37,204 nt of DNA from a virus (UHGV-0014568), one strand, 5' to 3'; shown: positions 3,452-37,204, numbered from the stretch's first letter. The notes: generated from the sequence alone by a model not told the origin. Translations and numbers: made by a program.

Positions 3452-5922
3452 CAGAATCCCCCAACAGTAAGGCGAGGAATAACAGCAAGAACAGACAGCG
3501 GCAACGGGTCAAGCTGACGGATTCTTACACGTCCGTTTTTGCCCCAGTTACTGTCCAGTTTCACTTCTACTTTTCCGGTAGCGTCATCAATAGGATCATC
3601 GTAGAACTCGAATTCACGCTGTGGATATTCGTACCATTTACCGCCGGGCGTAGTCGCCCAGATGCCGCGGCTGGCATTCACAACCAGAGTAACGGAGGGG
3701 ATCACCTGTTTTTTGTCCAGCAGCGTTTCCTGTCCGTTAATGTTGATATCCAGTGTTTCGAATTCAGCAGTTATTGGCAGGCCGATGTGCACTACAGCCC
3801 CTGGTGATTCAAGCGTGACGGCACCTCCGGAAACTACTTTCTGTGGTTCCACGTTCGCATCAGAGAGGATGTTTACGGTCTGACCTTCAAGATGAGACAA
3901 GCCGCCAAATGCCCGGCGCGCCATCTGCCAGTTCGTGGTGGCCACATTCCTGAGGGATGGCGGGACGTTCCTGTTAGCACGAACCACTACAGCGGTGTTG
4001 CTGGTTACAGAAATAATGTCGCAACGTAATTCTTTTGACACTTCATCGCCAGTATCAGGATCAGTTCCGGTATAAGGGAACTGTAGTTGCGCACCGACAT
4101 CACTACTGGTGAAGTACGCACCACCAGAAATACTGATTGTATATTCCGCGCGGTAATCCCATTCGCCAGAACCACCAGTGATGGTCATCGTTCTGTCAGA
4201 CGTATTTCTTCCATCATAGCTAAGGCCAGAATCAACAAAGAAAGCATCTTCATCGCTGGTAAATAAACGGCTGGACAGCCGCTCGATGTATCTCACTGTT
4301 TGCCCGTTAACGGTTCGGTTAACGACGAAATACACTGCATCTTCATTGCCTTCGCTGATACTGCATGTGCTTTCATATTTTCCGGTACTGGATTGTGGTG
4401 CCCATGCAAAAACCTGCTGATCACGCAAATAGGTCATCACCAGTAATTTACCGTCATCACGAATGCAGAAGGCGCTGGAGTAAGGGACAATAGAGAAGCA
4501 CCAGTCAACAATGCTGTGCTTCTGAAAAAGATGATTGGCAAGGATGGTCAGGTCGTTCCCCTGATAGCCGTCAACATCGAATGAGTAGGCCAGATCACGG
4601 ACAACACTGCCTTTCTCCTGGACGAACAGAGCAATATTCGCCACGGCAATTGGTGGGACATTGCTCGAGCCATTTGATCCCTGAGAGCTGAATGCAAATG
4701 ATGATGGGGTAAGCACTTTGTTCTGGTCGCCGGTGATGACGTACTCACCTCCGGAAGTCAGCGCCACCAGCGAACCGACATCAATCAGGTGGCGGATCTC
4801 ATTAACCTGACGCCCGGCATAGGTGTAGATAATTCTGTCGTCATCCTGCGTAGGATTGCTTTTGCCAAAATCCTTATAATCCCCGGTACGGCTGGCCCAG
4901 ATAGTCTGAGGGAACGCAGTCGATGCGGCGAAGTAAAGACGTTGTTGATAATAAACAACAGTGCCAGGATAACCATTAACACTGTTCCAGGCATATTTAG
5001 CCCATTTATAGCTGGCATTATCCTCGCCAACTACCTGCGAAGGGATATAGGAAATCACCTCGGCAGTTGCAGTAGTTCCATTTGCAGCAGTGATACGGGC
5101 AATGCCAAAACCACTGTGCAGATATTCCCACTCAATGCCAGTATCATCATTACCGGATCCGCCCCAGCCATCCCATGATGTGCCTTCTGTATGCGAAGGG
5201 CGCAAAGTACCTGTTTTGCCTGCTGTAACGGCTCGATAGTAGTTACTGTCTGCACGGCGAATATCGCCAATAGACGTACTCTTACTGGTTTCCCATACCG
5301 GCACTGAATCCACTGCAGGCTGTTCCAGATAGAACAATTTGCCTACCTGCTCCGCGCCAAAAATAGAGGCGCTTGCCGTTAACGTAATTGTCCCGGTGCT
5401 GGCGCTGGCATAAACCGTCACTGACTCGTCAATATTGATATCTTCAAATGGCCCGTTCTTCGTTACCACATCAACCAGTTGCCAGTTGTCATGAGCATAT
5501 CGGCGCAACTCTTTCGGCGGGTATGCCGGGTGAACCAGCGTAAGCACGTCGGCGCTTTGCGTGAATTTAATTCGGAACAGATCGGCTTCAGTATATGGCG
5601 TGGCAATTTCATAAATAACATTGCTGCTGTTCAGCACCAACGCACCATCTTTGATAACGCGCATGTACTGGTGTCCGAACTCCAGAGCATAGGTCTGAAC
5701 CGTCGAGAACTGGAACGGGATCAGGCGGCATTTCCGATTTGGGTATTTGGCGGCACCGACAAAACGCGTACCAGGTCGATTCTCAACGCCGCCATACTGC
5801 CGCACGATAAAGTTATCGCACTTGCGCAATGCCACCTGGTACTTCGCCATGTCAATACGCCCGTACAACGACGGTCCAATCTCACCACCGGCAAAGCTGG
5901 GCTGGATCCAACTGATAGCCAT
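3451..5922 (-). CDS. Tail tubular protein B-like (nozzle) protein
   Basis: 823-aa ORF directly after a ~200-aa gene, as T7 gp11/gp12 are; N-terminus MAISWIQPSFAGGEIGPSLYGR resembles the start of podovirus nozzle proteins (recollection). Confidence 0.45.
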   Translation of the reverse strand: MAISWIQPSFAGGEIGPSLYGRIDMAKYQVALRKCDNFIVRQYGGVENRPGTRFVGAAKYPNRKCRLIPFQFSTVQTYALEFGHQYMRVIKDGALVLNSSNVIYEIATPYTEADLFRIKFTQSADVLTLVHPAYPPKELRRYAHDNWQLVDVVTKNGPFEDINIDESVTVYASASTGTITLTASASIFGAEQVGKLFYLEQPAVDSVPVWETSKSTSIGDIRRADSNYYRAVTAGKTGTLRPSHTEGTSWDGWGGSGNDDTGIEWEYLHSGFGIARITAANGTTATAEVISYIPSQVVGEDNASYKWAKYAWNSVNGYPGTVVYYQQRLYFAASTAFPQTIWASRTGDYKDFGKSNPTQDDDRIIYTYAGRQVNEIRHLIDVGSLVALTSGGEYVITGDQNKVLTPSSFAFSSQGSNGSSNVPPIAVANIALFVQEKGSVVRDLAYSFDVDGYQGNDLTILANHLFQKHSIVDWCFSIVPYSSAFCIRDDGKLLVMTYLRDQQVFAWAPQSSTGKYESTCSISEGNEDAVYFVVNRTVNGQTVRYIERLSSRLFTSDEDAFFVDSGLSYDGRNTSDRTMTITGGSGEWDYRAEYTISISGGAYFTSSDVGAQLQFPYTGTDPDTGDEVSKELRCDIISVTSNTAVVVRANRNVPPSLRNVATTNWQMARRAFGGLSHLEGQTVNILSDANVEPQKVVSGGAVTLESPGAVVHIGLPITAEFETLDININGQETLLDKKQVIPSVTLVVNASRGIWATTPGGKWYEYPQREFEFYDDPIDDATGKVEVKLDSNWGKNGRVRIRQLDPLPLSVLAVIPRLTVGGF

Positions 5923-12055: not shown

Positions 12056-12132
12056 GTGGCATTAGCTCAGTCGGACAGAGCAACCGCCTTCTAAGCGGTT
12101 GGTCGCAGGTTCGAATCCTGCATGCCACGCCA
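12056..12132 (+). tRNA. tRNA-Arg (anticodon UCU, reads AGA)
   Basis: Hand-folded cloverleaf: acceptor GTGGCAT/ATGCCAC, D-stem GCTC/GAGC, anticodon stem ACCGC/GCGGT with loop CTTCTAA (TCT at 12090-12092), T-arm GCAGG-TTCGAAT-CCTGC, discriminator G and encoded CCA. Confidence 0.85.
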
Positions 12133-12330: not shown

Positions 12331-12687
12331 ATGAACGACCAGCAAATCGAAAAAGAAATCGTTGAGAAAGGCAAAACGGCACCGCGCGTTACGCCCCAAT
12401 ATATCGAAAGCATCATTCTTGAAGAGCATTTCTTTACTGCTTATGACGGTATTCGTGCCGCCAGTATGGGCGTTGGCGATACGTGGACAGCGCATAAATC
12501 TACAAACCTCCTTACTTTCTGCGTACTGGTGCTGAAGAATGGCTTCACCGTCACCGGAGAGAGCGCATGTGCAAGCCCGGAAAACTTTGATGCAGAAATT
12601 GGTCGGAAGATTGCCCGGCAGAATGCTGTAAACAAAATCTGGATGCTTGAAGGTTACTTGCTGAAGCAGAAGTTAAGCGAGCAATAA
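12331..12687 (+). CDS. Small moron protein, possibly phage Gp49/Sf6 gene-66-like family
   Basis: 118-aa ORF with AAGGTGAG RBS; opposite orientation to the flanking structural genes; family assignment is recollection of a conserved FFTAYDG...GDTW...NGFTVTGESAC pattern. Confidence 0.45.
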   Translation: MNDQQIEKEIVEKGKTAPRVTPQYIESIILEEHFFTAYDGIRAASMGVGDTWTAHKSTNLLTFCVLVLKNGFTVTGESACASPENFDAEIGRKIARQNAVNKIWMLEGYLLKQKLSEQ

Positions 12688-12691
12688 CACC

Positions 12692-12703
12692 GTGACATGT
12701 CAC
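12692..12703. repeat. 12-bp perfect palindrome GTGACATGTCAC (copy 1 of 3)
   Basis: Exact palindrome 5 nt after the stop of the plus-strand moron gene and just before its terminator. Confidence 0.8.
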
Positions 12704-12707
12704 AAAC

Positions 12708-12734
12708 AGCCAGCCTATGAGCTGGCTTTGTTTT
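12708..12734 (+). terminator. Rho-independent terminator for the tRNA/moron cassette
   Basis: 7-bp stem AGCCAGC/GCTGGCT with 6-nt loop followed by TTGTTTT. Confidence 0.6.
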
Positions 12735-14878: not shown

Positions 14879-14956
14879 TAGTACCATGCAAAATAAAGCC
14901 GCCATAGTTGGCGGCAGTATTCAAAACACGTCAAATTCATCATGCATAATCTACTC

Positions 14957-14968
14957 GTGACATGTCAC
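14957..14968. repeat. 12-bp perfect palindrome GTGACATGTCAC (copy 2 of 3)
   Basis: Exact palindrome overlapping the stop of the upstream 115-aa ORF, about 110 nt upstream of the terS ATG. Confidence 0.8.
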
Positions 14969-15312
14969 ACTATTAATTTCGTTTCATGCCAGCCTTTAGT
15001 CACCCAGCATTGCGAGTCACCATTACACGGGCATGAATTAACTGGAACTCTCTCGCCGCACTTACCGCAACGTTTTCTGCTGATCGATTTTATACGCCCG
15101 CGCACACGTGCATCATCCTGGCGGATCAGCAGCGCGATGTACTCGGCCATTTCATAGGGATCGCGACCAGGGCGCCGGGCGGCGCAGTTCCGCGCCAGCA
15201 TTTCCTGCTCCTGCTTATCCAGCACCAGTTCAATTTTGCGCTCACCGGCGGCGGACTGCCGAGCGCGCTGCGCGGCTTTGCGTTCTGCGGGGGATTTAGC
15301 CACGAACCGCAC
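14965..15312 (-). CDS. Arg-rich protein with C-terminal Cys cluster, unknown function
   Basis: 115-aa ORF (GTG start); C-terminal CGKCG...CPCNG zinc-binding-like motif; start uncertain; overlaps the small ORF 15296..15418. Confidence 0.3.
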   Translation of the reverse strand: MRFVAKSPAERKAAQRARQSAAGERKIELVLDKQEQEMLARNCAARRPGRDPYEMAEYIALLIRQDDARVRGRIKSISRKRCGKCGERVPVNSCPCNGDSQCWVTKGWHETKLIV

Positions 15313-15418
15313 TCCACGCCAGATTGATTAATGACTCCCAGGTAATATAAACCCGGATACCAGCAGCCAGGCCGAAACCAATCACCATGGCATAAAGCAG
15401 AGCGTTGCACTTGTTCAT
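15296..15418 (-). CDS. Possible 40-aa single-pass membrane peptide
   Basis: ATG shares one base with the upstream stop (TGATG); hydrophobic core ALLYAMVIGFGLAAGI; below the ORF-track size cutoff; conflicts with the 115-aa ORF start. Confidence 0.25.
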   Translation of the reverse strand: MNKCNALLYAMVIGFGLAAGIRVYITWESLINLAWSAVRG

Positions 15419-15999
15419 CAGTTCACCTCCTGCGGTGGTTCCGGTAGCGGCATCCAGTGAGTTGAGCTCTCTACTTCGACGCCGTCTTTGTCCACAAAAG
15501 CCATCTTATTCCCGCCACGAGTGGGGCAAAAAACCTTATCCCAAGAACCGGGGAATACATTACCGAGATCATCGAGAAGAATCACATCGCAATATTCAGC
15601 AGGAACTGCATCACTACAGCTTATCCAGCCAGCCGGAGTTACCGGAGGGGTACCCGATAGCGCATTCTGCTCCAGTGATGCTTTTACAAACCACGCTGCC
15701 TGAACTATTACGCCATGAATCCAGCGCAAATCAGCATCGCGATCGTTCTTTTTCATCTTTTCACCACTTAAAGCCTGGCTTATGTGGCTGCATACTAGGT
15801 TTTCATGTAATTCCTTCGCATCCTCAATGGTGAAACCACCAGGTAAACGCCCCGGAGTTACCGGAGAGTTGCCAGCCTTGCGCATGGCAATTTCCACGAT
15901 TTCAACCATATCTTCTGGTGGAATTTTACAATGCTGGCCAATATGCCTCTGCTGTCTGGCATACTCGAGGATGTGCTCCAGCTTGGTTCGATTAATCAT
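15418..15999 (-). CDS. DUF551-like phage protein
   Basis: 193-aa ORF; C-terminal GWISCSDAVPAEYCDVILLDDLGN...THWMPLPEPP matches my recollection of the DUF551 pattern. Confidence 0.45.
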   Translation of the reverse strand: MINRTKLEHILEYARQQRHIGQHCKIPPEDMVEIVEIAMRKAGNSPVTPGRLPGGFTIEDAKELHENLVCSHISQALSGEKMKKNDRDADLRWIHGVIVQAAWFVKASLEQNALSGTPPVTPAGWISCSDAVPAEYCDVILLDDLGNVFPGSWDKVFCPTRGGNKMAFVDKDGVEVESSTHWMPLPEPPQEVN

Positions 16000-27269: not shown

Positions 27270-27752
27270 CTATCTTGTCAGGGTGTCATACTGTTTTTCG
27301 CAGACTCTTCCGGCTTCGGCTGCCCGGTCAGCATACTCTGCCAGTTGTCTGTTTCTCTCGAGAGATTTGCTGAGCACGTCGGCAAGCAAAACTCCGGTGT
27401 CTGCGGCTGACGTCCCAGCGCCGACAATGGCGTTATACTGCCTGAGCTGCTCACGGATGGCAAAGAGTTGTTGCTGCAACCTGCCAGCGCGAACGGCAGC
27501 ATCAAGAGCATCATTGCGCGCCTGGTCGATCCTCTGCTGAGCTTCACGTTCATTGGTCGCTTTCTCCCGTTCGTACTGCTTACGAATTCTCTCATCTTCA
27601 GCTTTGCGGTCTTCCTTAGCCTGCGCATACCCGGCGTCGTACTGACGACTGCCGTGTGCATTCCAGGCTACAACTCCTGATATTACCAGAACAGCAAGCA
27701 TCACCATGATAACCAACTGTTTCCAGTATGCTTTTGCGAATGCCCAGATCAT
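27270..27752 (-). CDS. Rz-like inner-membrane spanin
   Basis: 160-aa ORF overlapping the endolysin stop; N-terminal TM ([18 protein letters not shown]) then charged coiled-coil region. Confidence 0.6.
27278..27514 (-). CDS. Rz1-like outer-membrane lipoprotein spanin embedded in the +1 frame of Rz
   Basis: Signal peptide with lipobox ([13 protein letters not shown]), Pro-rich mature part; wholly inside the Rz gene. Confidence 0.5.
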   Translation of the reverse strand: MMLLMLPFALAGCSNNSLPSVSSSGSITPLSALGRQPQTPEFCLPTCSANLSRETDNWQSMLTGQPKPEESAKNSMTP

Positions 27753-28378
27753 ACCGCCAGCACCTTACTGGCAGTGATGTACCGCGCGCGCCGGTCGTCG
27801 ATGCCGTTCCGGCCACCATTGATAATCAGAGTTACACGTGCAATATCGCCGGTATACTTCATGCAACCTTTGCTGGAGAAGAACCACGCCGCGCTACGAG
27901 CCGCGTATTCGTCCTGCGCCAGCAGTTCAGGATTCTCCAGCAAGTCCACTTTCAAGCCGTTTCCGCAGTCACGATAGTTATTCAAACCGGTAATCTGGAT
28001 AAGTCCGCGACCTCGGTAATTCCAGCCATCACCAGGGGCATTGTTCCCCATGCGTTTGCTGTACACCAGATTGGCGATCGCTCTCTGGCGCTCAAGTGGC
28101 AACAGCGGTTCGCCTACGCGTCGCCCCAATGCGTTAGCCTGTCCCTGGGTGAGACGCCCAGCCCGAACGAAGTTAGCCAGTCCGGTGACGCTGTAGTTGA
28201 AATTTTCCTGCAACCGGGTGAAGCCCACAGACTCATGCCCGACCTGAGCAATAAACATTGCCTGATCTTCGGGTTTGCTTATTCCAAACTCTTTCATCGC
28301 TGAAGTTATATGCGAGAACCAGCGTGCAGCCAGTGCCTCGCTAATACCAGCAGCTCGCTGGAATTGTTTAATCTCCAT
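27749..28378 (-). CDS. Endolysin, glycoside hydrolase family 19-like
   Basis: 209-aa ORF with GAGG RBS; [16 protein letters not shown] motif typical of GH19-type lysins; no N-terminal signal-anchor. Confidence 0.7.
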
Positions 28379-28676
28379 ATTTAGACCTCGTTATTTTGAA
28401 AATCTGAACGACGTTACCGCGCGTTTTAATAACCGCAGCAAGCATGACAGCGTTGATAATGACCTCAGATAAATCCACAACCATTGGCGTGCGTAACCAG
28501 ATTGCATAAACAACACGAACAGGGATACTGGCCGCTGCAACAATCAGGAAATAAGCAAGCCACCCACCCCATCTCCTGTGTTGAGAACCGTTTCTCCGAA
28601 ATGTGGCAACTCGAACTGCTATACCGGCGCAAATAGCCGCATTGGTGATAAGCAAAAAAAGCTCATGAGTTACCAT
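28368..28676 (-). CDS. Holin (three predicted TM segments)
   Basis: 102-aa ORF immediately upstream of and overlapping the endolysin; three hydrophobic stretches; GGAG RBS. Confidence 0.5.
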
Positions 28677-29067
28677 CGTCTTTTCTCCCCGGAATTAACT
28701 CGCGTGGATTATCGGAACGGTGATAGAGCCAGATTCCAATTCGCACTGCGACGATTGCTGACACAAATGCACCGGCAGAGAAAACAATCCCTTTCTCGAA
28801 AGAATCCTGTGTGATTGTAGGGATCAGGCTGGCTATGCCGATAAGAATTGATGCTGCTGGTTTGTAGAATAGAAGTCCGCATAGAAAGCTAAGCATCGAC
28901 AAAAGCACGCGACGACGAATTGGATACTCTACCGCAGAGGTAACAAAAATTACCGCCCCAGACAAAGACCCCAAAGCAACCTCAGGAGGAACACCGGCCA
29001 CAACCGCAATAAAAGAACTAACACTAAGCCACTGATTTAAAGACTCACTTGTTAGTTGAACTGACAT
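28663..29067 (-). CDS. Multi-pass membrane protein of the lysis cassette (second holin or antiholin candidate)
   Basis: 133 aa from ATG 29067 with GGTGG RBS (track's longer ORF starts at 29157); several hydrophobic segments; overlaps the holin start. Confidence 0.4.
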   Translation of the reverse strand: MSVQLTSESLNQWLSVSSFIAVVAGVPPEVALGSLSGAVIFVTSAVEYPIRRRVLLSMLSFLCGLLFYKPAASILIGIASLIPTITQDSFEKGIVFSAGAFVSAIVAVRIGIWLYHRSDNPRELIPGRKDDGNS

Positions 29068-29168
29068 AAAAACCACCGTTTCATGTGCATGAAGAACCCA
29101 CTTATTTGTGAGTTCATCATACACAATAAACCATATGTGGTTAAACCATAAAGACAACTATCTTGTCT

Positions 29169-31907
29169 TTATTGGATAATATGGAACGAATTTTTAACAT
29201 GAATAGTAGCAGAATTATTACTATTATTAATTAAAGCGATCTTCCCGCCAGAATATCCGGGAACAGCCTGTTGAACAGTTCCGCCAGTAGTGGGTTTAAC
29301 TGTTATTGTAGGTACTGACCCTGCCAGGCCAGCTGTAAGCTTGACCTCACCTGTCACATCGCAAGTCAATGTGCCGACAACAGTAAGAGCGCCGAAAAGC
29401 ATTGTTGAAATCTCAATTCCAGTTGAAGTTCTCTTTGCAACAACTCCGCTTTGTGAAGTAGGTTTATAGTAAAAAATCACTCCACAGCCAACAGGAATTG
29501 ATGATAAAGCAACGTTTTGAACATTTGGTGATTTAGTTGCACCATACATATCAGGAGATTCATCATTAGCAGTTTCTGCCGCATACGACAATAACAAATC
29601 AGCTCTATCCCTTACCTGCCCATATACTCCTTTTATTGCATTTTCAGCAAGATACACTGAAGCGCTTTGCGAGCATGACTCTTTCAAATCTCCTCTAAAC
29701 AACAGCCCTGGTGGATATACTTTTGATGGCGTACCATCGTAAATAATCTCAATCTGATTAAGTCCTTTTTTAAGGGTTCCAAGGTGAGTGGTTAGTTTGT
29801 TTGTAAACGATGAGACGCCATTACTAGCGATATTACCAGAACTAAATGCTGTATTACGGATATCTTGTTGTCGGATAGAGATGGAGTTAGCGCGACCGTT
29901 TGCAACATATGTTGGGTTATACGGCTCAAAAACAACCAATGATATATCAGAAGTTTCACACCAGACAAAATATCGTATGGTTAAATTTTCAGTAGCTGGG
30001 TAAACCACGCCCCAGCCAGTTAGACCATTTAGATACGTGTCTCCACTCAACCGCTCCATACCAACGCTGTACGTGCTACCAGACGGGAAGCCAAATGGCT
30101 GGATATCATTATCAACTGTTGGTACGAAGTTATTCCCTTTTTTCGCAGTGTGGACTCTATACGGCATAACAGCCTTTGCTGCATATGCGCCGATATATTG
30201 ATGGCCCAGAGGAGCAAAATGCGTGCTATCAAAAGTGCCATCTGTCGGGCGCCGAGCAATATCTTCAAGCGTATAGCTTCCGAGGTCTCTGTACATCTCG
30301 GTTACTGGCTGAGAGAGATCGAGGAACTCTACCGCAGGGAACAGGCGTTCAATATGCTTCTTAATTGATGCTTCGAGAGCCGCCCATTGTGAGCCATTCT
30401 GGTTCATTGAAACAACGCAGACGGCACATCCGTAACCCCATGCTTTACGGATAAACTGCTCAAAACGGAATAAATACTGATCGAACCCTAACGTATCAAG
30501 TTGTCCGTTATCGTTAACGCCCATGGATATGAAGCAAACGTCTGGCGGCACGTTTCCGTATGCAGTGTTTTTGAAGAAGCCATGGTCAAAGTTACGATTC
30601 GCCCACCCGTCAATGAGTCGCTTTCCAGAAGATGCGCAGTTTTCAGCCTTAAATATGTAAGCACTATTTTTAGTAAATCGGTTAAGCCAGTCGGTAAATG
30701 TGCGAAACCAAGAACCTGAACCACCATTACTATTGTGATCGTAGTTAGTTGAAGATAGGTCACCATTAGAATCGGTTGGATTAGCTGACCATCCAGCACC
30801 GTATGCGCCGTCAGTGATTGAATCACCAACGATACCAACACGACATAGCGTATTGCGGCGAGCGAACTGGTTTATTACGTTGAATGCAGTGTATTTACTG
30901 CCATGAGTTGCCAATCCAACATCAAATATGTGCTCATTCCCCCATGGATCTCTGGTGAGAATTTTTCCTTCACCGATAAATTTTGTCACATCATCATCTG
31001 GCAGGAAATTGCAGCGTAGCTGAACATCCTTCGGAACATAAATTTGTCCAGTATAAGCGTATACTGCAGCGCGGTTATCTGTCTCGCTATCAATGACTAC
31101 CCCAGGAACATATTTCACGGCTAATGCATCATTGCGATATTTACCGTTGCTTAGCTCTGTCCTTAATACAGCATCACCTACACCTATCCATGCCCCTGGA
31201 CCAACACCACCAGTAGTGGTAGGAGTTGATCCAGGCGGAACTACTTTGGGCAGTGGCCCATCCCATCTGTAGTATTCGCCGTTGCTTTCCCAGAGAAGAA
31301 CATCGTTAAGATAGATGATGGTATTACCCAACTCAAAAGATTTCTTCGTGTTATAGCCATACAATCCATTTTCTAAGGTTTCAATAATGGTGCTAAGTAT
31401 GGTACTAAATTTTGCATAAAGATCATCAGTATATTTTTTTGTAGCAGCATCTTGGGGAAGAGATGGATCACGAAGATTTCTAATATAATTTGAAAGCGCG
31501 TCATAAAAAATTGCTACGTCATTTGGCTTTCTTAAAGCCAACTTATCATTTCTTAATGATTGTTGAATGAGCATAGTAAGTTTATCAAACGCATCCTCAT
31601 GTACCTCAGCGAAGAACTTACCCTGATTACGTAAATCCGTTTCCTGAGTAGCTGGTAGTTCTCGTGATATAGATATCTGATGACCGTTAGCCAACGCCTT
31701 CGAGAGAATTACATTACCGCCGTTGTACCCTCCCGCTCCGGTGACGATGTAATCTGTATCAAGAACCAGTACGTTTATATTCTCGCTAATGTCAACAACC
31801 TGTACTACCAGATCTGATTTTTTGAAGATCCTAAATTTGTAAGGGAATGTCGTCGTAACACCATTGCCAGTGTATTCGTTGTGGTTAACTTCGGTTGAGA
31901 CCGTCAT
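29169..31907 (-). CDS. Tailspike/tail fibre with T7-type N-terminal attachment domain and SGNH (GDSL) esterase domain
   Basis: About 912 aa from ATG 31907 with GGAGA RBS (track ORF starts at 31949); N-terminus VNHNEYTGNGVTTTFPYKF resembles podovirus fibre N-terminal domains; SGNH blocks GDSITDG (Ser codon at 30819-30821), GVNDNG and DSTHF. Confidence 0.7.
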   Translation of the reverse strand: MTVSTEVNHNEYTGNGVTTTFPYKFRIFKKSDLVVQVVDISENINVLVLDTDYIVTGAGGYNGGNVILSKALANGHQISISRELPATQETDLRNQGKFFAEVHEDAFDKLTMLIQQSLRNDKLALRKPNDVAIFYDALSNYIRNLRDPSLPQDAATKKYTDDLYAKFSTILSTIIETLENGLYGYNTKKSFELGNTIIYLNDVLLWESNGEYYRWDGPLPKVVPPGSTPTTTGGVGPGAWIGVGDAVLRTELSNGKYRNDALAVKYVPGVVIDSETDNRAAVYAYTGQIYVPKDVQLRCNFLPDDDVTKFIGEGKILTRDPWGNEHIFDVGLATHGSKYTAFNVINQFARRNTLCRVGIVGDSITDGAYGAGWSANPTDSNGDLSSTNYDHNSNGGSGSWFRTFTDWLNRFTKNSAYIFKAENCASSGKRLIDGWANRNFDHGFFKNTAYGNVPPDVCFISMGVNDNGQLDTLGFDQYLFRFEQFIRKAWGYGCAVCVVSMNQNGSQWAALEASIKKHIERLFPAVEFLDLSQPVTEMYRDLGSYTLEDIARRPTDGTFDSTHFAPLGHQYIGAYAAKAVMPYRVHTAKKGNNFVPTVDNDIQPFGFPSGSTYSVGMERLSGDTYLNGLTGWGVVYPATENLTIRYFVWCETSDISLVVFEPYNPTYVANGRANSISIRQQDIRNTAFSSGNIASNGVSSFTNKLTTHLGTLKKGLNQIEIIYDGTPSKVYPPGLLFRGDLKESCSQSASVYLAENAIKGVYGQVRDRADLLLSYAAETANDESPDMYGATKSPNVQNVALSSIPVGCGVIFYYKPTSQSGVVAKRTSTGIEISTMLFGALTVVGTLTCDVTGEVKLTAGLAGSVPTITVKPTTGGTVQQAVPGYSGGKIALINNSNNSATIHVKNSFHIIQ

Positions 31908-32102: not shown

Positions 32103-32360
32103 ATGCAGCAGTATCACTATCCACTGGAAGACGGATTTACCGAAAGGATTCACACGCCGGGAGGCGTCAGGTCACTGGTGGAGGGATCGCACTTGATGAA
32201 ATTACTCCGGGATCTCGATAAGGATGGATTTAATGTCGATGGCCCACTTGCCGAACTGACTGCACTGATTAACTACGTCACCAGCTCACAGATGTCTATG
32301 CAGGATCTGCAAACACATCTCGACTATTGTGCCGAACAATTGCGAAAACAAACCACATAA
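32103..32360 (+). CDS. Small SOS-regulated protein, candidate antirepressor
   Basis: 85 aa from ATG 32103 with GGAGAAG RBS (track's TTG start at 32085 is less likely); opposite orientation to the flanking virion genes; no family recognised. Confidence 0.5.
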   Translation: MQQYHYPLEDGFTERIHTPGGVRSLVEGSHLMKLLRDLDKDGFNVDGPLAELTALINYVTSSQMSMQDLQTHLDYCAEQLRKQTT

Positions 32361-32382
32361 AGAAAAGGCCGCGAAAGCGGCC
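32351..32382 (-). terminator. Terminator-like hairpin GGCCGC-GAAA-GCGGCC with minus-strand U-rich tail
   Basis: Perfect 6-bp GC stem at 32367-32382; TTTTCTTTATG follows on the minus strand (end of internal-virion-protein transcript); no T-run on the plus side. Confidence 0.45.
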
Positions 32383-32383
32383 T

Positions 32384-32395
32384 GTGACATGTCAC
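32384..32395. repeat. 12-bp perfect palindrome GTGACATGTCAC (copy 3 of 3)
   Basis: Exact palindrome abutting the GC hairpin between two convergent genes. Confidence 0.8.
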
Positions 32396-32402
32396 GCTCA
32401 CG

Positions 32403-32543
32403 TTATGACAAACCTATGTACCCTGCCACACCAGATAATATCAAAACAACTGCAACAGCAAATTCACCATCACCAATGATACATTTACGGTTCATAACGC
32501 CAAGTGCAACAAGCGCAAACACAACAAGAATAAAAGCAATCAT
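32403..32543 (-). CDS. Possible 46-aa two-helix membrane peptide
   Basis: ATG at 32543 ten nt after the 824-aa gene stop, AGGA-type RBS; MIAFILVVFALVALGV...FAVAVVLILSGVAGYIGLS; below the track cutoff. Confidence 0.3.
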   Translation of the reverse strand: MIAFILVVFALVALGVMNRKCIIGDGEFAVAVVLILSGVAGYIGLS

Positions 32544-32552
32544 TTCTCATCC

Positions 32553-35027
32553 TTATTGCGGAGTGACATCCTGCGGTCGCCACCAGTATGTCTGATTAAA
32601 CTCTTTCTTCGAACGTTGCTCCATTTTACGCAAATAGCCTGGTGAAAAATACTCCTGCATCTGGTTAAAGATCATATGATCGAGAGCCGCCTTCAAGTAC
32701 CAGAGATTAGCACCTGGCATCAGCCCCTTCCCAAGCTTAACCAGATCACCACCAGTCTGCTCATTCTTCCCTTCCACAGCATTTAACGGTATGCCCTGAG
32801 CAATCTTCACTACGTCATCAACCAGACCAGCTACCGGGCCAAGCATCGACGCCAGCGCGCCGCTTCCGTACCTAGTGTGATCTGACAATAAAAAGTCACC
32901 GTAAAGGCCAAGACCACCACCTTTCAGTAGAGCACCAAGCCAAAATTTAGCAGCATCTTCCCCCGTCATCTCGCGAGGATTACGACCAGACGCAAGGTCG
33001 TTAAGTTGCTGCGACAAAGCGCCAAGAATGGTCGTACTGGCAATAAACGTCGCAATATATGCCGCACGCCCACCAGCAGACGGCATCCCCATAGCGCGTG
33101 ACCAGTGACGCATAACCACCGAGATAGGGAACGATTTAAACAGGAAAACACTTCTCGTTAATTCACCTTTCCATGTTCCACGCTGAATACCAGAACCTGT
33201 TATCAGTTGCTCACGTGCGCCAGGAGTGATGACCGCCATATCCACTTCTTCGGTCACCGCCCCGAGCAGTTTACGCATTGCCTCAAATTTCACGCGTTCA
33301 GGCTCACCAAGATGTTTAACTGCTGAATCAGGGATACGCATAATGCTTTCCGGTGTCAGCATCGTATTATTACCGTTACCCCAGTCCTCCTGTTGCGCCA
33401 GCTTCCATACGCTCCAGTCTGTGTCAGTAATCCCTTTGCTTTTCAGGATACGAAAATCAGAGTAATCGAGGCTACGAAGGTCTGGTGTCCGTGACACTAC
33501 TTCTCCCAGGCTTCCCATCATAGTTACGCCATAGGCGCGCTTGTGCGCATCTGACCATGCTGTAAGCCCACTGGCACGCATTACCGCCGTTGCCGCCCAA
33601 CGAGACACTGACGGCCCCATATTATCCATCGCCCAGCGGTTAACGCTGCCAAGTAGAGATTCCATCGCCAGACCAGCGCGGCGCGCCCGCGCAAGTTCTG
33701 TACGGTTCGTTGGGTCCATAGCTTCAAGCTGGTTGCGGAATAACTGGTTCATTGGAAGGTTGGTAACCTTCGCAGACAGATACATGGTTCCAAGATCAGA
33801 GAACGATGACAGCAACGCGGATCCGAGTCTGCTGGCAACCAGCCAGTTGCGGATATTGTCAGACCATCGCGCGATATGCGGATTCGCTACAGGCTGTGTC
33901 TTTCCGGAAATAAAGTTGTACAGATTCTCTGTGTTGTTCGCCAGCCGCTCGACTTTACCGGTTTTACTCGGGTTAGCTGTTGCCGTTTCTGCCTTCACCT
34001 GATCAAGAAGAGAGCGGAAAACATGATCGGGGTTTGGGCCATATGTTTCCACCAGTGCAATATCTTTACTGATACCTTCCAGGTGACCGACCATGATTTC
34101 CCATAGAGAGCGATCGCCATAAAGTTGCTGATATTGCAGATAGGAATCTGCATCTTTGAAATGTATCTGTCGTGATGCATTACCACGGTTAGCACGTGCG
34201 CCGGAAATTCGCATTCCGGTATCAGTAAGCTTATTCAGCCCACCAGTAGCGATCGTGTTATAAGCCTCTCCAAGAAATGCAGACAACTCGGCATCGTTCA
34301 TCAGTTGTCCATCGGCTCGGGTATAATATTTGCGATCCAGCTTACCTATAACATCGCTAACCCACTTATCCTTTGATACCGCCCCAACCTTTTCCATAGA
34401 ATGATGTTGAGGGATCCCCCAGTTTTCGAGATAGCCAATGTCCCCACCAGCATCATTAAACCGGCGGCGCAGCAGCTCTGTAACTTCTCTCCACGCCTTA
34501 GCACCTTTTCTTGCTTTAGCATTGCCAGTATTTTGCCCTCGCATTTCATATACCAGGTCACGCACGCCAGCTTCATCTTCAAACAGGCCAAAAAAGCGAG
34601 GATCAACTGCTTCAAATGCCTCTTGCAATTGACTCAATGCATAATCACGAGTGGCTTTTGTTCTGGACTCAACAGAGAGGAAATTCGATTTACCGTCTGC
34701 ATTAAAAGCAATAGTACGGTTAAGAGCGCCAAGCTTCCCATCAGCCCCTTGATAGCTATTGATAAATTTATCCAATCTCTGACGTGCGGCTATAGTGAGG
34801 GCCACACGACGTTTCTTTAATGCCGCTTCTCGCTGTAATTCTTCAGATGCCAATTGTGCTGCACGATATAGCCGCTCTGATTCGGGAAGTTGTCTCCACG
34901 ACATCGGGTCATCACGAGCAATGGAGCGCATATTTCGATAAATGCGGTCTTCAATGTTCTGTATTTCTCGCGCCGTTAACGTGCGCTGCGCCGCCTGCTG
35001 GACCGCTTGTATACATTCCTGTCTCAT
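32553..35027 (-). CDS. Large internal virion (core/ejection) protein
   Basis: 824-aa ORF upstream of the tailspike; large mixed helical protein; role inferred from position. Confidence 0.45.
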   Translation of the reverse strand: MRQECIQAVQQAAQRTLTAREIQNIEDRIYRNMRSIARDDPMSWRQLPESERLYRAAQLASEELQREAALKKRRVALTIAARQRLDKFINSYQGADGKLGALNRTIAFNADGKSNFLSVESRTKATRDYALSQLQEAFEAVDPRFFGLFEDEAGVRDLVYEMRGQNTGNAKARKGAKAWREVTELLRRRFNDAGGDIGYLENWGIPQHHSMEKVGAVSKDKWVSDVIGKLDRKYYTRADGQLMNDAELSAFLGEAYNTIATGGLNKLTDTGMRISGARANRGNASRQIHFKDADSYLQYQQLYGDRSLWEIMVGHLEGISKDIALVETYGPNPDHVFRSLLDQVKAETATANPSKTGKVERLANNTENLYNFISGKTQPVANPHIARWSDNIRNWLVASRLGSALLSSFSDLGTMYLSAKVTNLPMNQLFRNQLEAMDPTNRTELARARRAGLAMESLLGSVNRWAMDNMGPSVSRWAATAVMRASGLTAWSDAHKRAYGVTMMGSLGEVVSRTPDLRSLDYSDFRILKSKGITDTDWSVWKLAQQEDWGNGNNTMLTPESIMRIPDSAVKHLGEPERVKFEAMRKLLGAVTEEVDMAVITPGAREQLITGSGIQRGTWKGELTRSVFLFKSFPISVVMRHWSRAMGMPSAGGRAAYIATFIASTTILGALSQQLNDLASGRNPREMTGEDAAKFWLGALLKGGGLGLYGDFLLSDHTRYGSGALASMLGPVAGLVDDVVKIAQGIPLNAVEGKNEQTGGDLVKLGKGLMPGANLWYLKAALDHMIFNQMQEYFSPGYLRKMEQRSKKEFNQTYWWRPQDVTPQ

Positions 35028-35032
35028 TTAAT

Positions 35033-36835
35033 TTAACCTCTCAAGAAACACGCCACAGCGACATCAAACAGGCTGGAATCCTGTATTGCCTGCTCACTTT
35101 CCCTGTTCGCTTCATCCAGTACTTCACGCGCGCTGCGCGATTGTGGATTACCATCATCATCCAGCACGGTTATTATCATGTCCGGTGATTCAAGCAGCGA
35201 GTCTTCAGCTATGCGCAGATCAATATCTCCTGCCGGATCTGCCATCATCTTTTGTTCTGCCTGTTGCAATATCTTACCTGGCTCAAAAGGAGCTACTTCG
35301 TCTGGCGTCCTGACCTCTGCTGTTTTATAGAATGAAACAGCCTGAGCATTAAGTTCACTCTCAGCCTGCTGTCGCCGTGCCAGTTCTGCTCGAGCTTCAA
35401 AAAACTGACCGCCAGGCTCGTGCGGTGCCAACGCGTTACGGGAAAATTCCAGGCGTTCTTGTGCCTGCCGGATTCGTTGATCAATATCGCGAAGTCTGGC
35501 CTGTTTATCTGATCGAGCACGAGACAAAGCTTTACCGCTACCGGTTGGATCTTCTGCAAGAATTTGTGCACGCTGTTCAGTGAGATTTTCAATAATTCGT
35601 TGGCTATTAGCGATTTCAGACTGGTAAACCTGTCTATCTCCACGCGGCAAAAGCTGCGCGGCCTGTTCTTCAAGCAACCGATTTTCTATAGCGCGCGCCG
35701 TTACTCCATCATCTACAGATGACAGAGCCTCATTAACTGCCTGAGACAGCAGACTCTTGCGCCCAGGAATTTCACTGAAAGATGCAGACTCAACAATGCT
35801 GGCAACGTCTACAGGTCTCCCTTGGCTAACATCAGACATAGCTTTTCGCAGAGCCTGAATGTGAGAATTGCGCGAAAGCACGTTGATCGGCACGCCGGGC
35901 GCAATATCAATTTCAGCATGATGAGCGGCATTCGCCGCCAGTGCAGCATCGATATCAACTGGTGAAAAATTTGGTGCGTTTGTAGACTCGCCGCGAGAGT
36001 TAATAAATCTGCCGACACCACCAAACGCCACCCCAAGAACAGCATCAATAGCAATTGCCTGTCGATCCAACACATCATACTGGTTAGCCATTTCGCTATA
36101 GCCACCATCACGAAGCGTTTTTGCAGTAAGCCCACGCTGTGCCATACCGAACGCAATATTTGTACCTGCGGCATAGGCAATATCTGGCGTTGCACGTACT
36201 GCTGTTGCTGCGGCGCGTCGCACTGAACTCTCACCCGTCCGCGCAAGCTGAGCCGCCACACCTTCCGCCAGCGCACCACCAGCACGTAACCCGAGGCTCA
36301 TAGGGATCAGTGTTCCGGCACCAGCAGCAATGCCCTGCACTAATCCCGCTTCCTGCGCCGTCCTGAAATCAACACCCTGTGCTGTCAGCCGTTCAAACTC
36401 AGAAAAACCCTGTAGCGAAGTTACCGCCGCTGCACCTCCGACAGGACCACCGAGCGTTGTACCGACAACAGCCTGCCCGCCCATATCGAACAACCCATAA
36501 AGAACCTGCCCGGCGGTTCCGGTTGTCGCGGCATCAGGCGTCAGCCGCTTAACCTGCTGCTCTGCTAGTTTTCTCTGCTCAGCAATGTATGAAACTGAAG
36601 TGTCATTGAGCGAGGTGTTTTCGTTAACAAACTGAGCAATCGGGGATACGATTTTATCCATCCCTGCCCATAGCAACTGATCTGGCTTTGCCACCAGCCC
36701 GGAGTACAAACCAGACAATGCCGCTCCTACAGCGTTGTCGAAAAAACCAACATCGCTGTTAAAGCCAGCTGGATTTGATGCTGCTTCGTCAAGCTGCTGA
36801 TTCTGGTTTACTGGATTAAGGCCAAAGTAACTCAT
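35033..36835 (-). CDS. Gly/Ala-rich internal virion (ejection) protein
   Basis: 600-aa ORF with a Gly/Ala-rich hydrophobic N-half and a charged coiled-coil C-half. Confidence 0.45.
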   Translation of the reverse strand: MSYFGLNPVNQNQQLDEAASNPAGFNSDVGFFDNAVGAALSGLYSGLVAKPDQLLWAGMDKIVSPIAQFVNENTSLNDTSVSYIAEQRKLAEQQVKRLTPDAATTGTAGQVLYGLFDMGGQAVVGTTLGGPVGGAAAVTSLQGFSEFERLTAQGVDFRTAQEAGLVQGIAAGAGTLIPMSLGLRAGGALAEGVAAQLARTGESSVRRAAATAVRATPDIAYAAGTNIAFGMAQRGLTAKTLRDGGYSEMANQYDVLDRQAIAIDAVLGVAFGGVGRFINSRGESTNAPNFSPVDIDAALAANAAHHAEIDIAPGVPINVLSRNSHIQALRKAMSDVSQGRPVDVASIVESASFSEIPGRKSLLSQAVNEALSSVDDGVTARAIENRLLEEQAAQLLPRGDRQVYQSEIANSQRIIENLTEQRAQILAEDPTGSGKALSRARSDKQARLRDIDQRIRQAQERLEFSRNALAPHEPGGQFFEARAELARRQQAESELNAQAVSFYKTAEVRTPDEVAPFEPGKILQQAEQKMMADPAGDIDLRIAEDSLLESPDMIITVLDDDGNPQSRSAREVLDEANRESEQAIQDSSLFDVAVACFLRG

Positions 36836-37179
36836 TGCGGAATATCTCCGGAGAATCTCTGACGCTTCTGTGTCAGATTAAGAACAACGGGAGAACCATC
36901 ATCTTTCAGCAGATAACCAGTACCAAGTTTCACCAGGTACTGACTATCGCCGTAACTTTGCAAACCATACTGACCAGGCGGTGTTTTTATCCCGGAGCCG
37001 ACAACTTGTTCATTCCAAGCCTGATTAACCTGCTTATCGAATTGCTCTGCAGACATTCCCCACGGCAAAAGGACATTCCCCATTCCGTTATAGTCATGCA
37101 CGCCACCTGTAGCTACGTTAACAGCCTGTTTCCAGACATCATTGTCAATTTCGCCTGATACCACGCCTTTTTTCGCCAT
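36832..37179 (-). CDS. Small virion-associated protein
   Basis: About 115 aa from ATG 37179 (GTG at 37182 also possible) with AAGGA RBS; stop overlaps the next gene start. Confidence 0.35.
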   Translation of the reverse strand: MAKKGVVSGEIDNDVWKQAVNVATGGVHDYNGMGNVLLPWGMSAEQFDKQVNQAWNEQVVGSGIKTPPGQYGLQSYGDSQYLVKLGTGYLLKDDGSPVVLNLTQKRQRFSGDIPQ

Positions 37180-37204
37180 CACACCAGCGTAATAATCCTT
37201 TGCG

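Follow-up and report, generated by a model that had tools for sequence, protein, structure and literature searches.

The 46-codon open reading frame described here lies on the minus strand of a 37,204-nucleotide viral sequence (UHGV-0014568, the whole of which is referred to below as the window), between the gene for an 824-aa virion protein and a terminator-like hairpin. An initial annotation had pointed out a two-helix hydrophobic frame with a ribosome binding site at this place (32403-32543), together with a 40-aa frame at 15296-15418 that overlaps the upstream gene by one base (TGATG), and both are present at the positions given, on the minus strand. The window represents a phiV10/epsilon15-like (Uetakevirus) genome in circularly permuted form. 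Around the 46-aa ORF its DNA shares ~96% identity with that of Escherichia phage phiV10 and of other Uetakevirus (epsilon15-like podophage) genomes, and the circular permutation follows because a homologue of phiV10 p18 is continuous over both window ends (residues 249-713 correspond to 1397→3, and residues 715-837 to 37203→36835). The minus-strand virion block thus extends from the portal gene over the window junction to position 32403. The features of the locus and its surroundings are as follows.

32403..32543, minus strand: 46-aa ORF (MIAFILVVFALVALGVMNRKCIIGDGEFAVAVVLILSGVAGYIGLS) of the PhiV10p21 / phrog_7892 family, with its ATG at 32543-32541
32550..32554, minus strand: Shine-Dalgarno sequence AAGGA of the 46-aa ORF, 6 nt 5' of the ATG and overlapping the TAA of the 824-aa gene
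32553..35027, minus strand: 824-aa virion protein, phrog_684, homologue of epsilon15 gp17, with its stop codon at 32555-32553
32400..32549, minus strand: exchangeable cassette of 150 bp, the only stretch unlike relatives that carry type B or type C (see below)
32384..32395, either strand: perfect 12-bp palindrome GTGACATGTCAC, copy 1, between the 46-aa stop codon and the terminator, at the right edge of the cassette
32356..32383, minus strand: terminator-like hairpin AGGCCGC-TTTC-GCGGCCT (hairpin 32383..32366) with a T-run, ending the virion operon
32103..32360, plus strand: convergent gene of ~86 codons, phrog_450, homologue of epsilon15 gp19 and of SPC32H 'ant' (annotated anti-repressor)
27270-29157: lysis cassette with phrog_198, phrog_217, phrog_181 and phrog_312 (two holin-family genes, endolysin, spanin)
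1-2435 and 36835-37203, minus strand: homologue of phiV10 p18 (epsilon15 gp15, annotated putative lytic transglycosylase), spanning the window ends

The 824-aa protein is 27.8% identical to epsilon15 gp17 over its full length, and gp17 is a homologue of T7 internal virion protein D, gp16 (IVP-D; Hardies et al., PMC4819975). Compared with phiV10, the p18 homologue has ~100 additional residues near residue 245. The lysis cassette, whose counterpart in phiV10 is p27-p30a, directly follows the tailspike gene (29157-29169); the O-acetyltransferase gene that phiV10 carries beside its tailspike is absent at this junction, and the window tailspike, at 926 aa, is of another type than that of phiV10. 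A tRNA gene (12056-12129, plus strand) and a 118-aa gene (12331-12687, plus strand; phrog_322, related to phiV10 p03 and Sf6 gene 66) form a reverse-oriented insert in the interval between the large terminase and portal genes.

The 46-aa ORF begins 9 nt beyond the stop codon of the 824-aa gene, and the hairpin that follows it corresponds to a terminator annotated in both the phiV10 and epsilon15 records. The phrog_7892 profile matches the predicted product from residue 1 to 46 of 46 (E=1.2e-31). In phiV10 the ORF is annotated as PhiV10p21, a putative integral membrane protein with two predicted transmembrane helices, and it is also an annotated CDS in SPC32H and PAS61. The position, directly after the 824-aa gp17-like gene and before the terminator, is the same in the annotated relatives. 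The description of the 46-aa and 40-aa frames as unannotated therefore holds for the ORF track of the initial annotation, but both are annotated CDSs with PHROG families in public relatives; the 46-aa gene cannot be counted among those that are often missed, since PhiV10p21 is already listed as a membrane protein with two helices. Both genes are thus already known as hypothetical proteins.

Substitution patterns indicate that the 46-aa ORF is a real gene under purifying selection. Among 37 copies representing 22 distinct DNA alleles, drawn from the window, annotated phages, IMG/VR contigs and bacterial genomes, pN/pS is 0.21 in frame versus 1.85 and 2.85 in the two shifted frames (pooled Nei-Gojobori), and the variable sites of the 22 alleles fall at codon positions 1, 2 and 3 in the ratio 11/4/26. 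The frame is intact in 32 of the 37 copies; four of the others have a common C-terminal frameshift and one is truncated. At 76-96% identity there are 48 protein clusters, from Escherichia, Salmonella, Citrobacter and Hafnia, in which the polar loop N18-R19-K20-x-I22-I23-x-D25-G26-E27-F28 is the most conserved part, with positions 21 and 24 varying. A profile search of 1.84 billion representatives returned only five clusters at 50% identity, all of 33-48 aa and all with the polar loop and VAGY(L/M)G as a shared motif; this makes for a small, narrow family, and the same exhaustive search gave no link to any characterised family. Diverged homologues of 45-48 aa preserve the loop as (N/E)RKG-I-I-D..E, together with VAGY(L/M)G, such that length and motifs are conserved down to ~50% identity. 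In one Salmonella genome an ISL3-family transposase gene (4008-5228 of the locus) replaces the tailspike gene just after the anti-repressor gene; this prophage is probably defective, and its 46-aa gene is nonetheless intact.

The product is also unusually hydrophobic. Only one of the 271 ORFs of 30-70 aa in the window reaches a GRAVY of 1.5, and that is the 46-aa ORF (GRAVY 1.84), compared with a mean of 0.13 such ORFs in shuffled windows. That the frame is a chance opening, or a decaying remnant with no product, is a reading to which its very short length and the frameshift or truncation in 5/37 copies lend something; it is effectively refuted by the frame-specific pN/pS, and the strong codon-position bias, the conservation of length and motifs at ~50% identity, the presence of a ribosome binding site and a hydrophobicity far beyond chance likewise oppose it, leaving it a negligible probability.

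The 46-aa product is predicted to be a two-helix membrane hairpin. AlphaFold2, run with the family alignment, models helices at residues 2-19 and 25-45 with a mean pLDDT of 92.7, and a Foldseek search of the PDB with this model finds generic helical hairpins only (best E = 3). Pfam, NCBIfam and PADLOC give no match for the 46-aa peptide, the 40-aa peptide or the proteins that replace the 46-aa peptide in relatives (see below), and in PHROGs both peptides and these replacements match only families of unknown function.

Small hydrophobic peptides of this kind had been suggested to be toxins, holin-like proteins or superinfection-exclusion factors. Pinholins are small and have two transmembrane segments, and a role in the timing of lysis, whether holin-like, antiholin-like or membrane-depolarising, late and alongside the virion proteins, could draw on the pinholin-like size and topology of the 46-aa peptide and on its co-expression with late genes. 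The C-terminus, however, reads ...GVAGYIGLS with no charged residue past E27 and is thus without the charged tail of holins, and a complete lysis cassette with two holin-family genes, endolysin and spanin lies elsewhere (27270-29157); for these two reasons a holin or antiholin function is unlikely. In addition, the proteins found in place of the peptide in relatives include lipoproteins and a signal-peptide protein, which are unfit for one common lysis role, and we regard a part in lysis timing as rather improbable. There is likewise no sign that the peptide is a toxin of the small hydrophobic type I class, in which the gene has its own promoter and an antisense RNA of a kind represented in Rfam: searching the whole window against Rfam at the gathering threshold gives a tRNA only and no antisense RNA, and the 46-aa ORF has no promoter of its own.

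The second small ORF lies in the early region.

15296..15418, minus strand: 40-aa ORF (MNKCNALLYAMVIGFGLAAGIRVYITWESLINLAWSAVRG), phrog_5525, with its ATG at 15418-15416
15426..15430, minus strand: Shine-Dalgarno sequence GGAGG, 7 nt upstream of the 40-aa ORF and within the end of the DUF551 gene

The start codon has one base in common with the stop codon (TGA) of the DUF551 gene before it, and the 3' end of the ORF overlaps the start of the next gene, the phrog_536 'transcriptional regulator'. The phrog_5525 profile matches residues 1-40 of 40 (E=2e-29), the ORF is annotated as a hypothetical CDS in EC.W1-9 and phiv142-3, and 38 protein clusters from Escherichia, Klebsiella and Citrobacter keep a length of 40-41 aa and most residues. 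Conservation across related phages, proposed as a check in the initial annotation, is thus found for both frames. With pN/pS at 0.41 and six alleles only, the evidence of coding is weaker than for the 46-aa ORF. The lambdoid prophages of Klebsiella have the 40-aa gene in the nin region, its start overlapping the stop of the upstream gene; this stop/start overlap involves a DUF551 gene in five of six Klebsiella prophage loci as well as in the window, and the upstream gene of the sixth locus has no Pfam match. In TL-2011b a DUF2591 gene stands in place of the 40-aa gene. The 40-aa ORF is a conserved small gene of an early nin-like region, translationally coupled on both sides. At the six Klebsiella loci (2501-2700) no more than the first ~14-25 codons of the phrog_536 gene remain after the 40-aa gene; the two apparently moved together into these prophages, where the second is truncated. 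AlphaFold2 models the 40-aa peptide as one helix (residues 3-39, pLDDT 90), of which residues 6-21 are hydrophobic and the remainder amphipathic. Its initial designation as a single-TM protein is therefore borne out as regards a single helix, and a membrane location is inferred from hydrophobicity only.

The 46-aa gene comes last in a long virion operon that runs from the portal gene to the genes for the ejection proteins. A sequence scan for sigma-70-like promoters at 8/12 matches or better finds none within 220 nt upstream of the ORF, and synonymous diversity at the 3' end of the gp17-type gene dips mildly, to 0.08-0.09 versus ~0.14. Sites like the repressor operators of epsilon15 (ATTACC-N5-GGTAAT as annotated there, or TTACC-N5-GGTAA) number 13 in the window compared with 0.5 expected by chance. 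Two of these (14846 and 14864) lie upstream of terS, one (11719) upstream of the portal operon and one (32012) between the tailspike and ant genes, with further sites in the immunity region; additional positions include 18698, 18760, 21091, 21139, 21851 and 21913, and none of the 13 is near the 46-aa ORF. Because these sites mark the starts of the terS, portal and tailspike/ant units as well as the immunity region, the pattern suggests that the prophage repressor acts on the virion operons directly. We infer that a virion operon under repressor control, with the 46-aa gene as its last cistron, supplies the peptide on infection or induction, and since the gene is co-directional with the late operon and has no promoter of its own, it is probably silent in a stable lysogen.

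The palindrome at the edge of the 46-aa gene occurs at two further places in the window.

14957..14968, either strand: GTGACATGTCAC, copy 2, overlapping the stop codon of the phrog_536 gene
12692..12703, either strand: GTGACATGTCAC, copy 3, just past the stop codon of the 118-aa gene (12331..12687, plus strand)

Three exact copies compare with ~0.002 expected by chance. Each stands beside a terminator-like hairpin at a gene end, on the strand of the ending gene: copy 2 is ~40 nt upstream of the terminator that precedes terS (14915..14898, minus strand), and copy 3 is 4 nt before a terminator at 12708..12727 (plus strand). The three junctions have counterparts in epsilon15, which carries one copy at each and no others (2142, 19517 and 39612), despite a gp17 only 28% identical, and the two in phiV10 (2262 and 19493) are as many as can appear in its linear record. 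The copy at the cassette edge is present in almost every close relative and absent from the loci of Morganella and of distant relatives. The palindrome is annotated in neither the epsilon15 nor the phiV10 record, and the string was not found in the literature searched. It may bind a protein and thereby affect termination, or it may help the exchange of cassettes as a short conserved junction. A promoter-like site, GTGACA-18-CATGAT (9/12 matches; 14939-14968, minus strand), has one half of the terS-side palindrome as its -35 element; the terminator at 14898-14915 (minus strand) follows ~20 nt past it, then terS, and the whole unit is just downstream of the gene for the Zn-ribbon protein of phrog_536. 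One may speculate that this unit resembles a late promoter/terminator pair under an antiterminator, downstream of the regulator gene.

Comparison with close relatives shows that the 46-aa gene occupies an exchangeable slot. Homology to loci of the other types ends 3 nt past the gp17 stop codon and restarts at ~32399 just before the terminator, and these two boundaries define the cassette in the window as exactly 150 bp. Among 80 IMG/VR contigs in which the C-terminus of gp17 is at least 97% identical to that of the window, the slot has three kinds of contents.

Type A, 31/80 contigs: the 46-aa peptide
Type B, 41/80 contigs: an unrelated GTG-start 57-aa peptide with two TM segments and a 98-aa membrane protein (phrog_3075)
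Type C, 8/80 contigs: a 41-aa TM peptide and a 126-aa lipoprotein (phrog_3716)

Each cassette type brings its own ribosome binding site. At the eight type C loci the frame for the 41-aa peptide (segment positions 309-472) overlaps a second hydrophobic frame of 43 aa, and a frameshift joining the two would give a two-TM peptide of ~55 aa; a pseudogene, a shared sequencing error or a programmed shift could account for this. The slot was also examined downstream of the gp17 homologues of twelve annotated phages and in several prophages, with the following contents.

Epsilon15: gp18, 64 aa with two TM segments, overlapping the end of gp17 and followed by the annotated terminator
Klebsiella phage BUCT711: unannotated TTG-start 57-aa ORF with two TM segments (3985-4158), then a 98-aa multi-TM protein
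Enterobacter phage Tyrion: gp19, 103 aa with two TM segments
Pseudomonas phage Shamal: unannotated multi-TM ORF of ~112-116 aa (4062-4412)
Acinetobacter phage 4316: 154-aa protein with an N-terminal TM segment
BcepC6B, VP2, Ralstonia phage C22, Skadi-3 and Vibrio phage K298: empty, with a tail fibre gene next
KompPA14 and YeP4: empty, with an opposite-strand gene next
Morganella prophage: diverged 48-aa copy of type A
Kluyvera prophage: type B and a 92-aa protein
Citrobacter werkmanii prophage: signal-peptide protein
Pectobacterium and Pantoea prophages: lipoproteins
Sodalis prophage: empty

The 57-aa ORF of BUCT711, which has no annotation in the public record, belongs to the same family as the type B peptide. 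In one distant phage, a 1129-aa protein has only its C-terminal domain in common with gp17; there a member of the 92-aa family comes first, then a type A homologue of 45 aa, then a convergent gene for a Bro-N anti-repressor and what is probably the tailspike gene, so that the slot modules recombine. In profile-profile comparisons type A matches type B with a probability of 1.4% and epsilon15 gp18 with one of 0.7%, and we therefore treat the three as analogues and not as diverged alleles. Every occupant of the slot is envelope-targeted, being an inner-membrane peptide, a lipoprotein or a predicted secreted (signal-peptide) protein, and the contents have the usual features of phage cargo acting on the cell envelope. 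Type A adjoins at least 13 tailspike receptor-binding clusters and type B at least 10.

The 46-aa gene is accordingly accessory and not core, and it is dispensable for virion function since it is swapped or missing beside the same gp17. The same observation bears on the idea that the peptide aids the phage's own ejection proteins, either by chaperoning or shielding them at the membrane of the producing cell or as a minor virion component with gp15-17. The tight translational linkage to an ejection protein gene, kept even in the divergent phage, would be in keeping with such a function, but unrelated proteins replace the peptide beside gp17 C-termini at least 97% identical, some relatives have nothing in the slot, and 5/37 copies are disrupted. 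Being replaced or missing in relatives, the peptide is not a required ejection partner, and a helper function is very unlikely. New here is the evidence for the 46-aa gene as one of several envelope-protein cassettes that replace one another in a sieA-like position with a conserved palindrome at the edge; neither the cassette polymorphism nor the palindrome figured in the initial annotation.

Of the toxin, holin-like and superinfection-exclusion roles suggested at the outset, we judge superinfection exclusion to fit the genomic evidence best, and our tentative proposal, to which we give somewhat less than an even chance, is that the 46-aa peptide blocks phage entry at the inner membrane. It would be made with the virion proteins on infection or when the prophage repressor is lifted, would insert in the cytoplasmic membrane, and would hinder the crossing of the envelope by later phages, most likely at the inner-membrane step of the ejection-protein conduit, the effect being superinfection exclusion in the manner of P22 SieA or T4 Imm. 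We favour an entry-blocking role because the position is equivalent to that of P22 sieA and because the occupants of the slot are envelope proteins; this argument is one of analogy. The occurrence of type A beside at least 13 tailspike receptor-binding types, independently of serotype, is also in favour of such a role. Against it, exclusion produced only in lytic growth is of less obvious value.

The strongest rival is that the peptide acts by inhibiting an inner-membrane enzyme with which the host makes its cell-surface polysaccharide, and so alters the O-antigen receptor, with the consequence that kin phages or released progeny would not adsorb to infected cells or debris. There is precedent in the same group of phages in epsilon15 gp22, a 66-aa protein annotated 'alpha polymerase inhibitor, two transmembrane domains', and in Gnarl1-3, small accessory proteins of variable phage loci that shift O-antigen banding (PMC12373910). 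Phages of the phiV10 type use O-antigen-specific tailspikes, and the lack of an O-acetyltransferase gene beside the tailspike of the window, unlike phiV10, would also agree with this function. However, BLASTP of the 46-aa peptide against epsilon15 gp22 gives no alignment, the gene is outside the seroconversion module, and the same peptide occurs with at least 13 tailspike receptor-binding types in hosts from Escherichia to Morganella. Wzy polymerases are serotype-specific, although a conserved target such as WaaL or Wzz is possible. On balance we consider O-antigen inhibition unlikely.

Returning to the block of entry, a further and doubtful reading is that the slot is a dedicated palindrome-bounded exchange site for minimal anti-entry factors and that GTGACATGTCAC is a new cis-acting site of termination or read-through. 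The smallest known blockers of a podovirus ejection conduit at the inner membrane would then be the 46-aa hairpin and the 57-aa and 64-aa peptides that are its unrelated analogues, and control by the palindrome at operon ends might be exerted via the adjacent Zn-ribbon regulator (phrog_536). The passage of podovirus ejection proteins through the inner membrane is a poorly understood step, on which escape mutants of P22 SieA have been informative. If the peptide does block entry, its 46 residues would give a very simple means of probing a T7-gp16-like conduit genetically and structurally, with three or more unrelated natural alternatives in one slot offering ready-made comparisons. Phages of the phiV10 type serve as reporter and typing phages for O157:H7, and an exclusion or surface-modifying gene would therefore affect the interpretation of host range. 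Should the role of the peptide prove ordinary, a correctly annotated hypothetical gene remains.

Among known systems, epsilon15 gp22 and the Iap protein of Pseudomonas phage D3 are, like the 46-aa peptide, very small and hydrophobic, and they act on an inner-membrane host enzyme (the alpha-polymerase); gp22 has two TM segments and comes from the same phage genus as the window. They differ in that they belong to a seroconversion module beside a beta-polymerase gene (after the tailspike in the case of gp22), whereas the 46-aa peptide is tied to no single serotype. The Gnarl proteins, of 40-90 aa, are encoded at variable accessory loci between conserved phage genes, with a proposed role in the exclusion of kin phages or in preventing re-attachment to debris (PMC12373910); they come from other phages, Gnarl3 binds the cytoplasmic GalU, and the likeness is drawn from their description. 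T4 Imm is a small phage membrane protein of lytic infection that blocks DNA injection by later phages (reviewed in PMC11436027). It too is likened by description; Imm (and Sp) belong to an unrelated virulent myovirus in which Imm is an early gene in another genomic context.

The closest parallel in genome organization is P22 SieA, whose gene lies between the ejection-protein genes and the ant/tailspike region as the 46-aa gene does. The order in P22 is 7-20-16, sieA, mnt/arc/ant and tailspike gene 9, and in the window it is the ejection genes, the 46-aa peptide, the convergent anti-repressor-type gene ('ant' in SPC32H) and the tailspike. SieA is likewise an inner-membrane protein encoded by an accessory gene, and it exists as several sequence types with less than 30% mutual identity (PMC10883804). 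The two differ in size and topology (162-164 aa with three predicted TM segments, versus 46 aa with two helices) and in expression, sieA being on the opposite strand with its own prophage promoter and the 46-aa gene co-directional with none of its own found; BLASTP between the two proteins (E=47) gives no sequence similarity.

The slot also resembles the morons and cargo slots of temperate phages, such as phi80/N15 cor, which hold non-essential envelope-protein genes at the end of a virion block, and its lipoprotein alternatives recall Cor itself. Classical morons carry their own promoter and terminator, whereas the slot cassettes have a ribosome binding site only and rely on the terminator of the operon.
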